Source: Escherichia coli (lineage in GTDB: Bacteria > Pseudomonadota > Gammaproteobacteria > Enterobacterales > Enterobacteriaceae). Taken from it: 64,000 nucleotides of DNA. How positions within the stretch are numbered: position 1 is the first letter of the stretch; each line of letters begins with the position of its first letter. Positions 32,527 to 36,839 of this stretch are shown one piece after another. Below the pieces are notes generated by a model. That model was given only the letters and a program-made list of their open reading frames with translations, had not been told where the DNA came from and did not search any database. The stretch lies in assembly GCF_009931435.1 (NCBI RefSeq), contig NZ_CP043414.1; one strand, written 5' to 3'. The translations under genes and the position numbers were made by a program.

Positions 32527-34788
32527 TCATCCCCGACGCAAATTCTGCGCCGCCTGCACCATGTTCGCCAGTGCCGCGCGGGTTTCTGGCCAGCCGCGCG
32601 TTTTCAAACCACAGTCCGGGTTAACCCACAGACGCTCTGCCGGAATGCGTTTTGCCGCTTTCTTCAGCAGGGACTCAATCCATTCCACGCTCGGTACGTT
32701 TGGCGAGTGAATGTCATAGACGCCTGGACCAATTTCATTTGGATAATCAAACTCTTCAAACGACTCCAGCAACTCCATGTCGGAACGCGAGGTTTCGATT
32801 GTGATGACGTCAGCATCCAGCGCCGCAATCGAATCCATGATGTCGTTGAACTCGCAGTAACACATGTGAGTGTGGATTTGCGTGTCATCTTTCGCTACGG
32901 CAGCGTTGATACGGAAAGCCTCCACGCCCCACTGGAGATAGGCATCCCAGTCGCTGCGACGCAGTGGTAAACCTTCGCGCAATGCCGGTTCGTCAATCTG
33001 AATGATGCCAATTCCAGCGGCTTCCAGATCGGCCACTTCATCACGCAGCGCCAGCGCAATTTGTTTGGCGATGGTTTCACGGCTGACATCTTCACGCGGG
33101 AACGACCAGCAGAGAATGGTCACCGGGCCAGTCAGCATCCCTTTCACCGGTTTGTCGGTCAGCGATTGCGCATACTTTGCCCACTCCACGGTAATCGGTG
33201 CCGGGCGGCTAACGTCACCAATGACAATCGGCGGTTTCACGCAGCGGGAACCGTAGCTCTGTACCCAACCGTTTTGTGTAAAGACAAAACCGTCGAGGTG
33301 CTCACCAAAGTATTCCACCATGTCATTACGCTCGGCCTCACCATGCACCAGCACATCCAGACCCAGACGTTCCTGCTCAACAATGGCCTGCTTGATATGT
33401 TCTGCAATGCCCGTACGATAGTTGTTGGCGTCGAGATTACCCTTTTTGAAATCCAGACGCAGGGTACGGATTTCTGTGGTTTGCGGGAAAGAGCCAATCG
33501 TGGTGGTCGGCCACGCGGGCAGTTTAAAACGCGCACGCTGGGCTTCAGCACGCACTTCATAGACATTCGCACGCTGACTGTCCTGGGCGGTGATCGCCGC
33601 CAGACGCTTTTCTACTGCCGGATTATGTACACGAGTAGAGTGACGACGCGCCTGAATCGGTGCACTCCACTCTGCCAGAGCTGCCGTGTCACCACTGTTC
33701 AGCGCATCGCGCAGCAATGCCAGTTCATGGCATTTTTGCAGGGCGAAGGCAAACCAGCTTTTCACTTCTGCATCAAGACGCGTTTCCACGCTCAGGTCGA
33801 TAGGGCTGTGCAGCAATGAGCAGGAAGATGCCACCCACAAATCACGTTTGCCGACAATGTCCTTAATTTGCGCATATTTCTCGGTAAGATCGGCGCGCCA
33901 GACGTTACGACCATTGATAAGACCAGCAGATAGCAGCCAGTCAGAAGGCAGACGCTTGTGCAGTTCAGCAACGTCATCTTTACCATGTACGAGATCGACA
34001 TGCAGACCCTGAACAGGCAGCGCAGTAATGGTGTCGAGGTTTGGCGTTACGCCTTCAAAATAGGTAGTCAGCAGCAGTTTCACCTGGCCCTGGAGCGCGT
34101 CGTAAGCGGGTTTATAGGCGTCCAGCCACGCCTGCGGCAGTTCCAGCACCAGCGCGGGTTCGTCGATCTGTACCCACTCAATGCCACGTTTTGCCAGTTC
34201 TGCCAACACTTGCTGATAAACCGGCAGAATGTCGCTCAGCAGGCTCAGGCGATCAAACTGTTCACCTTTCACTTTACCCAGCCACAGGTAGGTAACCGGT
34301 CCCAGCAGCACGGGCTTGACCTTGTGGCCCAGCGCCAGCGCCTCGTCCACTTCCTCCAGCAGCTGCGTCCAGGTCAGTTTGAACTGTTGGCCTTTAACGA
34401 ACTCCGGCACCATGTAGTGATAGTTGGTGTTAAACCATTTGGTCATTTCCGCTGCCGCCGCAGGTTCGCCAGTCGGTGCACGTCCACGACCAATACGGAA
34501 CAGAGTGTCGATATCTACCGAACCATCTTTGTTCTGGTGACGCGCCGGAACGTTACCCAGCAGCAGACTGGTGGTCAGTACATGATCGTACCAGGCAAAA
34601 TCGCCCACCGGCAGCAGGTCGATACCCGCTTGCTTTTGTTGATCCCAGTGACGAGCACGCAGTTCACGCCCTACCGCCAGCAGTTCTTCACGCGTGGAGT
34701 TCCCCGCCCAATAACTCTCTTGCGCTTTTTTCAGCTCGCGACGCAGGCCAACGCGAGGGAAACCGAGGGTGTGATTCAATATTGTCAT
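32527..34788 (-). CDS. metE: Cobalamin-independent methionine synthase MetE
   Basis: 753-aa [33 protein letters not shown]...; matches MetE. Confidence 0.97.
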
Positions 34789-34922
34789 TTTTCTTCCTCT
34801 AATTATATGTAAATCCTATGGATTTTGAATTTAGGGAAGGCGGCAAGTTTATTCATCCCCGGGAGCTTACTGAAGTAAGTGACCGGGGTGAAGAAACGCA
34901 GCCAACGCACCATAAATTTAAA

Positions 34923-34960
34923 AGACGAAGGATTTTAGCCGTCCAGATGTTTACACATCC
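34923..34960. promoter_or_regulatory. Tandem MetJ 'met box'-like repeats in the metE-metR divergent control region
   Basis: Tandem 8-mers resembling AGACGTCT (AGACGAAG, AGCCGTCC, AGATGTTT, ACACATCC); MetJ repression of metE/metR is established. Confidence 0.45.
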
Positions 34961-35023
34961 ATAATTGGCGGTTACTGTATATTCCTCAAGCGCAAATTAT
35001 TCATGCCGAAGTGAAGGACTTTC

Positions 35024-35977
35024 ATGATCGAAGTAAAACACCTGAAAACGCTACAAGCGTTGCGGAACTGCGGCTCACTCGCAGCCGCTGCGGCGACGTT
35101 GCATCAAACGCAATCCGCCCTGTCTCACCAGTTTAGCGATCTGGAACAACGCCTTGGCTTCCGGCTATTTGTGCGTAAAAGCCAGCCGCTTCGGTTTACA
35201 CCGCAGGGAGAAATCCTGTTGCAACTGGCGAATCAGGTGCTGCCGCAAATCAGCCAGGCACTGCAAGCCTGCAATGAACCGCAGCAGACGCGCCTGCGCA
35301 TTGCCATTGAGTGCCATAGCTGTATTCAGTGGCTGACGCCCGCGTTAGAAAATTTCCATAAGAACTGGCCGCAGGTGGAGATGGATTTTAAATCGGGCGT
35401 GACGTTTGACCCGCAGCCCGCGTTGCAGCAGGGTGAGCTGGATCTGGTGATGACCTCCGATATTCTGCCACGCAGTGGCCTGCATTATTCGCCGATGTTC
35501 GATTATGAAGTGCGTCTGGTGTTGGCACCTGACCATCCACTGGCGACAAAAACGCGAATCACGCCGGAAGATCTCGCCAGCGAGACGCTGTTAATTTATC
35601 CGGTGCAGCGTAGCCGACTGGATGTCTGGCGGCATTTTCTTCAGCCCGCAGGCGTTAGCCCGTCACTGAAAAGCGTCGATAACACCTTGTTGTTGATTCA
35701 GATGGTTGCCGCACGGATGGGCATCGCTGCGCTACCGCACTGGGTGGTGGAGAGTTTTGAACGCCAGGGTCTGGTGGTCACCAAAACCCTGGGCGAAGGC
35801 TTGTGGAGCCGACTGTACGCCGCCGTGCGCGATGGCGAGCAGCGTCAGCCGATTACAGAAGCGTTTATTCGCTCAGCGCGCAATCACGCCTGCGATCATC
35901 TGCCGTTTGTGAAGAGCGCGGAGCGACCCACTTACGATGCACCCACAGTGAGGCCAGGATCACCAGCGCGCCTGTAA
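35024..35977 (+). CDS. metR: LysR-family activator MetR
   Basis: 317-aa [52 protein letters not shown]...; matches MetR. Confidence 0.95.
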
Positions 35978-36764
35978 TAAACGTTGGCCAGTGCGGCTGT
36001 TGGTGCCAGATAGCCAGGTTAACCAACAGCCCTGCCGGAACGTGCATATTATTCATAATGCCCAGCGTTCCGGCGTCCACCTGAGTCGCGCCGTAGTTCC
36101 ACATAAAGTAGCCAATCCCGGAGGCCACCACGCCAAGAAACACCAGAATGCCCCATTGCAGCGTGGTTTGCGGCATTTTCTGCGCATTTCCCAGCAAAAA
36201 CCATGCAATCACTGCCACCAGAAACGCGCCAAGATAGAACCACGCAAAGGCGTTATGCTGTGGCATCGGACGAGTTTCCATCAGGCGTTTGTAACCCACC
36301 ATGCCGATAGCAAAAGTGATATTGGAGAGTTGCACCAGCAGCAGGCCAGTCCAGAAGTGGTCGGTGACCTGATCATAGCGAATAATTCCGGCACCAATCA
36401 CCGCCAACAAGGCGCTAAAAGCATAGCCCCAGCGCAGACGGCGCTTACTCATGATGTCATAAATCAGCGTGATGTAGAGCGGCGTCAGTACGGTGAACAG
36501 CAACAGCTCGGAGACCGTCAGGTAGAGATAGGCGCGAAAACTCAGCATATACATCACGCCAAGCTGCATCGCGCCCACCAGCATATACAGACCGACCGTT
36601 TTCAGGCTATTGCCACGGGTACGCAGAAACGGCAGAAACACGAGTGCCGCCAGGCCAACGCGCACCAGCACTGCAAAATAGCTATCGACGTGCCCCGCAA
36701 GGTACTCGCCATAAAAGCTAAAGGAGAAGGCCCACAGAATCGTGGTGATGATAAGTAGCGCCAC
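35865..36764 (-). CDS. bioP: Biotin transporter BioP (YigM), EamA/DMT family
   Basis: Track ORF 35865..36839 trimmed to an in-frame GTG giving (M)[23 protein letters not shown]... (299 aa); 3' end overlaps metR convergently. Confidence 0.8.
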
Positions 36765-36839
36765 AATGGAAAACTCTTTGATTAACGAGTATCCATTGTA
36801 GCGAAGTATCAGGTTGACAACTGGCCAAATAAAGAACAA

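Follow-up and report, generated by a model that had tools for sequence, protein, structure and literature searches.

ERIC, short for enterobacterial repetitive intergenic consensus, is a non-autonomous mobile repeat (MITE) of enteric bacteria that forms an imperfect palindrome over its full length. This MITE-like repeat, also named IRU or RU-1 (Sharples & Lloyd, 1990; Hulton, Higgins & Sharp, 1991; Wilson & Sharp, 2006), was described in 1990-91 and has been reviewed since (PMC2229807, PMC3184786). According to these reviews and to a third one (PMC10969869), ERIC transcripts form long stem-loops, and the ERIC copies of Yersinia operons (De Gregorio et al., 2005, as reported in the reviews) alter mRNA stability by exposing an RNase E site, an effect that depends on the orientation of the copy. 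These Yersinia copies are located between cistrons or at the 3' side, where they destabilise the upstream cistron. A second described system is that of the Correia/NEMIS elements of Neisseria, which are MITEs transcribed in 5' untranslated regions (UTRs) as long hairpins and are RNase substrates that alter expression (PMC10969869).

The element considered here is located in the metE-metR intergenic region of a 64,000-nucleotide stretch of an Escherichia coli genome (hereafter, the window), for which a first-pass annotation had reported an extended hairpin. Our analyses indicate that this hairpin is very probably the conserved central stem-loop of a 127-bp ERIC/IRU/RU-1 element located in the metE leader, and that this is the best explanation of the observations. 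The coordinates of the features discussed below are collected in Table 1.

Table 1. Features of the metE-metR intergenic region and its flanking genes, in coordinates of the window.
Feature	Position	Strand	Basis
metE	32527-34788	-	NCBIfam equivalog
metE 5' untranslated leader, ~167 nt	34789-34955	-	transcription start inferred
metE Shine-Dalgarno GAGGAAG (ERIC-bearing allele)	34793-34799	-	sequence; ERIC-free alleles have AAGGGG
Whole ERIC/IRU (RU-1) element, 127 nt, "type A" variant	34810-34936	-	consensus alignment, fold, dispersed copies
Outer arm of the ERIC palindrome, metE-proximal, contains CUUCCCUAA	34811-34836	.	inverted-repeat pair; covariation in helices 1-2
Central inverted repeat (core) of ERIC = reported hairpin	34857-34888	-	metE mRNA reads CCCCGGUCACUUACUUCAGUAAGCUCCCGGGG
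Outer arm of the ERIC palindrome, metE-distal, directly abutting the met boxes	34910-34935	.	inverted-repeat pair; covariation
MetJ operator common to metE and metR: three tandem met-box-like octamers AGCCGTCC AGATGTTT ACACATCC	34937-34960	.	sequence
MetR sites IR2 (34990-35004) and IR1 (35011-35025, containing TGAAGGACTTTCA)	34990-35025	.	PMC5002191
metR	35024-35977	+	NCBIfam equivalog

The first-pass annotation had placed the hairpin between the met boxes and the metE start, about 70 nt from the gene, and both its existence and its geometry are borne out. The sequence CCCCGGGAGCTTACTGAAGTAAGTGACCGGGG (32 nt) occurs once in the window, where none is expected by chance even when 3 mismatches are allowed, and its metE-side end is 69 nt upstream of the metE ATG. 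Complementarity between the two arms (34857-34871 and 34874-34888) extends to 12 of 15 positions (80%), the pairs being CCCCGG/CCGGGG and CTTACT/AGTAAG, which gives 12 bp with a 3x3 internal mismatch between them. The 46-nt stretch around the hairpin, read as metE-sense RNA, folds at -19.6 kcal/mol against -8.6 +/- 2.1 kcal/mol for dinucleotide shuffles (z -5.2), and none of 200 shuffles folds as well. What the annotation had overlooked is that this hairpin is merely the inner third of a 127-nt palindrome.

Two hints pointed to a bigger element: the larger inverted repeat, whose outer arms are 77% complementary, and the end-to-end, although sub-threshold, alignment of the Rfam model V_AS5 over 34814-34932. 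Taken alone, the 127-nt element folds in the metE sense as a single long imperfect hairpin (-41.1 kcal/mol, z -6.2), and the antisense (+) strand reaches -55.2 kcal/mol (z -8.1). The E. coli ERIC consensus (the 127-nt sequence of Wilson & Sharp, as quoted in PMC2759123) matches the metE-sense strand with 80 ungapped identities over 108 positions (consensus positions 6-113, corresponding to 34931-34824). The register of this alignment sets the bounds of the element at exactly 127 nt, with ends that are fuzzy by a few bases, as the similarity to the Salmonella copy SeRU-1 (92/117 ungapped identities) extends to 34804. The sites of the ERIC-PCR primers, the sequences of which were checked against PMC6196677, overlap the hairpin: 34851-34872 matches ERIC1R at 16 of 22 positions and 34873-34894 matches ERIC2 at 18 of 22. 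Using a 138-bp query (E <= 1e-3), we found 44,512 places in 5417 of the 5426 complete E. coli genomes compared, with a median of 9 and a maximum of 16 per genome; none of the other E. coli copies is more than 90% identical to the metE copy, and no second ERIC copy was found within the 64-kb window. The consensus match, the primer sites, the dispersed copies and the single 127-nt hairpin together identify the element as ERIC, which is an already known kind of element. The ERIC copies of K-12 have already been catalogued, and we expect the metE copy to figure in the published lists. In the literature searched, the pairing of metE with ERIC returned nothing relevant, and no experimental work on the metE copy was found.

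In its length of 127 nt, its full-length imperfect palindrome, its central inverted repeat corresponding to the ERIC-PCR sites, its multi-copy dispersal, its transcribed non-coding location and its presence/absence polymorphism at a fixed site, the metE copy agrees with the ERIC/IRU/RU-1 elements (Sharples & Lloyd, 1990; Hulton, Higgins & Sharp, 1991; Wilson & Sharp, 2006). It departs from the family in three respects. The outer arms of this variant, which we call type A, have diverged from the consensus, though they are still mutually complementary: the metE-proximal arm matches it at ~14 of 27 positions, versus 20 of 27 for the type-B copies found at the same site in Salmonella and Klebsiella (both counted by eye). 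The termini AAAUCC...GGAUUU are inverted repeats flanked by TA (C-TA-AAATCC ... GGATT-TA-C), but the terminal TA/target duplication is not cleanly recognisable, and the comparison of filled and empty sites gives no clean duplication, their flanks having diverged. Finally, the metE copy shows an unusual degree of conservation across genera, both in its position and in its sequence. Like the Yersinia operon copies (De Gregorio et al., 2005), it would be co-transcribed with its neighbour gene as a long RNA hairpin, and orientation effects are expected; unlike them, it is located in the 5' UTR of a monocistronic gene. The Correia/NEMIS elements share with it the leader position and the long hairpin, but they are an unrelated sequence family of another host, undergo RNase III processing and in some copies bring promoters or IHF sites.

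No Rfam family scores above threshold over the element. The best alignment, to RF02818 V_AS5 (129 positions, one long hairpin), covers 34814-34932 and has the GUGACUGGGGUG core motif in common, but at 28.7 bits against a gathering threshold of 96 (E-value 3e-4 to 7e-4) the element is not a member of this family; the same holds for RF02766 Ysr49 (Yersinia sRNA 49), with 18.0 bits against 95. Both hits (34814-34932 and 34865-34983) are on the + strand, antisense to metE. Judging by these sub-threshold hits, V_AS5 and Ysr49 are probably families of ERIC-like repeats that were captured in small RNA screens.

The first-pass annotation had left open whether the hairpin is a DNA site or an mRNA-leader structure, and the positions of the known regulatory sites speak for the latter. 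Relative to the point at which metE transcription starts in E. coli, the MetR sites IR1 and IR2 are centred at -63 and -41 (PMC5002191). In the window these sites are ATGAAAGTCCTTCAC, centred at 35018, and ATGAATAATTTGCGC, centred at 34997, so that the published spacing, a secondary source for the start, places it at 34955-34956. The minus-strand hexamers TTGAGG-17-AATTAT (plus-strand positions 34984-34989 and 34961-34966) fit a start at ~34955. The element would thus stand between this start and the metE ATG at 34788, in a non-coding, transcribed position: within the inferred 167-nt leader, ERIC spans ~+20 to +146, with the reported hairpin at +68 to +99. Therefore, the hairpin is transcribed if the start is where the MetR-site spacing implies, and the leader alternative of the annotation is the one that is retained.

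The regulatory sites that the annotation had listed around the hairpin are also present. The tandem met-box-like repeats are the octamers of Table 1, and the met boxes are common to metE and metR (PMC3228920). The TGAA-N5-TTCA motif reported directly before the metR ATG is TGAAGGACTTTCA at 35012-35024, abutting the ATG, and corresponds to the core of the conserved MetR site IR1 (PMC5002191). The promoter, the two MetR sites and the met boxes all fall within an 86-bp segment (34938-35023) upstream of ERIC, and this segment is unchanged in ERIC-free alleles. The octamers are kept in all the short and long alleles examined, and IR1 and IR2 are conserved in all 86 loci examined. ERIC is not involved in recognition by MetR or MetJ. 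The view of the hairpin as a feature of metE-metR control is supported in part: the hairpin is real, intergenic and likely part of the transcribed leader, but it belongs, as the core, to a dispersed ERIC/IRU repeat and is not a met-specific control element.

Two further observations concern the surroundings of the leader. A promoter-like sequence, TTCAAA-16-TATAAT (10 of 12 positions), is found on the minus strand at 34802-34829, within the ERIC arm nearest to metE; transcription from it would begin in the metE Shine-Dalgarno and give an almost leaderless mRNA. On the other side, the 3' end of metR overlaps by ~113 nt (35865-35977) the 3' end of the convergent downstream gene of the EamA family (35865-36839, minus strand), and the overlap has the same length in the Klebsiella, Cronobacter, Buttiauxella, Rahnella, Dickeya and Yersinia gene calls (L084-L089, 2042-2154).

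Among the 5,426 complete E. coli genomes, the metE leader exists in two alleles. The whole 235-236-bp ERIC-bearing intergenic region is found in 2,099 genomes, while the remainder match just the 90 bp beside metR. A short-allele probe retrieves 3,321 genomes, ~3,150 with a 117-bp and ~165 with a 122-bp intergenic region, so that both alleles together account for 5,420 of the 5,426. K-12, O157:H7 and 042 carry the long allele, and the comparison with the K-12 leader that the annotation had proposed shows the ERIC-bearing form; the short one is that of UTI89 and of an O114:H49 strain. When K-12 is aligned with a 100%-identical strain and with one short genome, 34789-34938 (~150 bp, with the hairpin) is replaced in the short form by ~35 unrelated bases (compared with L001, 569-605, and L090), a net difference of ~113 bp. 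The leaders would be ~167 nt (long) and ~48 nt (short), and the alleles also differ in the ribosome-binding sequence (GAGGAAG versus AAGGGG) and in the first few synonymous metE codons. The hairpin is thus absent from 61% of the complete E. coli genomes; non-conservation among related strains had been named as an observation that would speak against a control element, and an essential control role is refuted. The metE promoter of UTI89 shows a strong induction of the methionine type, 25-fold in urine, and metE is needed for fitness (PMC5404293); since this strain has the short allele, ERIC is not needed for regulated metE expression.

The same dimorphism is observed across the family. In a survey of one genome per species, 39 of the 80 Enterobacteriaceae loci are short (115-123 bp intergenic) and 41 have ERIC sequence at the identical junction, 40 of them with 228-262 bp and one (L034) with 186 bp. 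The outgroups Rahnella, Dickeya and Yersinia kristensenii have ERIC-free regions of 104-105 bp, and from these three sampled genera outside Enterobacteriaceae the short ERIC-free state is taken here as ancestral. As Rahnella, Dickeya and Yersinia have just short ERIC-free leaders, the idea that the short allele is a deletion derivative of the long one is disfavoured. Type-A copies, with diverged AU-rich outer arms, are those of the window, K-12, many Citrobacter, Kluyvera and Phytobacter, and type-B copies, nearer to the consensus, those of Salmonella, Klebsiella, Kosakonia and others; graded intermediates connect both variants. All long alleles have a GAGGAAG-type ribosome-binding region, in contrast to the AAGGGG of the short alleles. 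When the short and long states are mapped on a neighbour-joining tree built from 1.8 kb of the adjoining coding sequence, a minimum of 11 changes is required, versus an average of 27 (minimum 18) for random short/long labels. As every filled site shows one junction and the linked ribosome-binding variant, allele replacement by recombination accounts for this pattern better than repeated insertion or excision, and we infer that homologous recombination, acting through the conserved genes on either side, has passed the allele classes from one lineage to another.

Several individual loci deserve mention. In L034 (UBA5654) the central hairpin is lost and the outer arms are kept, which gives its 186-bp intergenic region; L063 (Huaxiibacter, 262 bp) shows a 14-nt tandem duplication next to the core, and L085 (Cronobacter sakazakii, 324 bp) an extra ~77-bp insertion with its own small hairpin between ERIC and metE. 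The locus titled "Chryseobacterium sp. 18061" (L059) is an Enterobacteriaceae-type metR-metE locus, whose MetR protein is 91% identical to that of the window; it branches beside the locus of Citrobacter sp. 18056 (L058), and assembly contamination or mislabelling is likely. The 3' part of the short leader (GGCTAAATACTAAAAATTCCACAAGGGGCATATAAT) resembles the type-A metE-proximal arm and its flank (CCCTAAATTCAAAATCCATAGGATTTACATATAAT) at ~26 of 35 positions, counted by eye (for example, L004 1384-1431 compared with window 34804-34842). It was this likeness that had suggested a deletion origin for the short allele. The resemblance exceeds the match of the type-A arm to the ERIC consensus, and could reflect recombination between the allele classes, co-evolution of the arm or chance.

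Where it is present, the element has changed far less than the synonymous sites beside it. The type-A copies of other genera are 88-99% identical to the window, versus 57-70% at the third codon positions of metR and metE, and the type-B copies 87-97%, versus 56-65%; the element is about as conserved as the adjoining operator region, and some Citrobacter copies are 99% identical to that of E. coli. Applied to the 41 orthologous leaders, RNAalifold predicts a single hairpin, in which compensatory changes are seen in 10 of the 28 pairs. A standard pair is formed in 97.4% of the cells, against 89.1% in shuffles, and 91 cells show a double change, against 28, a value that none of 500 shuffles reaches; in a control with the 3' partners shifted by 1-3 alignment columns, 30-55% of the cells were paired. 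In the hairpin, a stem pair (CCCCaG/CuGGGG versus CCCCgG/CcGGGG) is A-U in 16 orthologues, G-C in 15 and C-G in 2.

The strand to which this signal belongs must be interpreted cautiously. The consensus fold of the alignment is -19.6 for the metE sense and -33.5 for the antisense (+) strand, which also shows more covarying pairs across the 41 orthologues. The antisense folds better because several pairs that are G.U on the + strand become A.C mismatches when read in the mRNA. Therefore, the pairing signal is not creditable specifically to the metE transcript, and the G.U versus A.C asymmetry was rejected as proof of selection on the mRNA strand, as it points the opposite way; an asymmetry inherited from the repeat family or palindrome-templated mutation may be alternative sources of the pairing signal. 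Compensatory changes in a palindrome can arise without selection, through template switching between the arms. The changes took place at a single orthologous site, and conversion from other ERIC copies does not explain them, since no other E. coli copy exceeds 90% identity. As judged from these comparisons, the ERIC element is probably under constraint where present, and it may have an effect on metE.

These observations have to be weighed against the idea that the element is a functionless passenger, that is, an old ERIC insertion tolerated in the leader, a reading that we consider somewhat unlikely. The conservation and the paired changes would then result from template switching, from hitch-hiking with the operator or from a recent spread by horizontal transfer, and the 99% identity between the E. 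coli copy and some Citrobacter copies does resemble a transfer. The lack of the element in 61% of E. coli genomes and in roughly one half of the Enterobacteriaceae species sampled, met regulation being unaffected, the natural variants in which the core is lost (L034) or altered by the duplication (L063), and the asymmetry favouring the non-mRNA strand agree with it as well. Nevertheless, a conservation of 87-99% over ~130 nt, versus 56-70% at third positions, in many genera and in both types, speaks against a passenger; genus-specific substitutions point to vertical descent, and conversion would erase the type-A arms specific to this locus. At the level of DNA, a palindrome that extrudes as a cruciform or binds a nucleoid protein could affect the divergent metE/metR promoters or supercoiling, and the conservation of compensatory pairing, which is strand-symmetric, and the contact with the operator would fit such a role. 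ERIC has, though, no reported DNA motif beyond its terminal repeats (PMC2229807), the imperfect AT-rich outer arms with their many mismatches are poor cruciform formers and no supporting data were found, which makes this reading highly improbable. We regard as equally improbable a small antisense RNA of the + strand directed against the metE leader, like Vibrio AS5: the + strand hairpin is more stable and covaries better, and the sub-threshold V_AS5 and Ysr49 hits are on this strand, but there is no promoter-like site on it in 34700-35100, scores so far under gathering are consistent with shared ERIC ancestry only, and the strand asymmetry may come from the repeat family.

That the hairpin is a dedicated cis element of the met regulon, either a DNA site bound by MetR, MetJ or some other protein, or an attenuator or riboswitch sensing methionine, SAM or B12, is extremely improbable. 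In its favour, the metE leaders of other bacterial groups carry riboswitches. Yet the sequence is a dispersed repeat present at many unrelated loci, and most E. coli lack it, as do Yersinia, Rahnella and Dickeya, all of which keep the MetR/MetJ sites. Neither the MetR motif (ATGAA-N5-TTCAT) nor tandem MetJ boxes (AGACGTCT) occur in the hairpin sequence, which is unlike both consensuses. A terminator or attenuator was rejected because a scan retrieved no terminator-like site and the stem is followed by no U-run on either strand. A riboswitch or another known cis-regulatory RNA was likewise rejected: no such Rfam family matches up to an E-value of 10, and the sub-threshold hits are just to the two small RNA families, apparent ERIC relatives. 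A leader peptide was also considered, as a 36-codon open reading frame (MVRWLRFF...) runs on the minus strand from 34913 to 34803 and ends 14 nt before the metE ATG. This frame starts inside a stem. It is intact in most of the 31 type-A loci, but around a dozen of them (including L018, L042, L043, L053, L081, L082 and L083) have it interrupted or truncated or lack it, and the type-B loci have frames in other registers. As it has no Shine-Dalgarno, it is probably incidental, and it was rejected as a conserved gene; incidental open frames have been described in ERIC elements (PMC2759123).

Returning to an ERIC element with an effect on metE, its copy immediately downstream of the MetJ boxes would be transcribed into the metE 5' UTR and would fold as a long imperfect hairpin. 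Where retained, it would act after initiation, as a structured leader module that tunes the stability or the translation of the metE mRNA. A candidate route is a competition in which the full hairpin is opposed by pairing of the Shine-Dalgarno with the arm that contains CUUCC. The full hairpin of the type-A leader (-46.4 kcal/mol) and an alternative fold (-46.7 kcal/mol), seen in minimum-energy folds, in which the CUUCCCUAA segment of the metE-proximal arm pairs with the metE Shine-Dalgarno region, are predicted to be isoenergetic, and thermodynamics therefore does not tell which of them forms. The predicted accessibility of the ribosome site is low (~0.2), which, together with the alternative fold, suggests a possible translational effect but proves nothing. 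An RNA thermometer was discarded, as the predicted Shine-Dalgarno accessibility is the same between 25 and 45 C. A two-state leader can be envisaged, in which the full hairpin would leave the ribosome-binding site free and the alternative fold would pair the CUUCC arm with it. More speculatively, and in our opinion improbably, the metE-leader ERIC would have been domesticated as such a cis-acting post-transcriptional module, perhaps two-state, and both leaders would be ancient functional alleles kept side by side, shuffled between genera by recombination and setting different MetE regimes.

Once the ERIC element is recognised, this hairpin need no longer be taken for an operator, attenuator or riboswitch specific to methionine. 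The comparison also reveals a natural experiment, in which MetE, a highly expressed and fitness-relevant protein, is placed behind a 48-nt or a 167-nt leader in near-identical E. coli backgrounds. The allele dimorphism, the constraint across genera and the compensatory changes in situ are worth noting as a testable case of co-option, even though the chances of its being one seem to us rather low. If ERIC does tune the stability or translation of the metE mRNA, it would be among the few documented bacterial MITEs co-opted in a 5' UTR, and the results on metE expression obtained in K-12 would not be directly transferable to the majority of E. coli strains.
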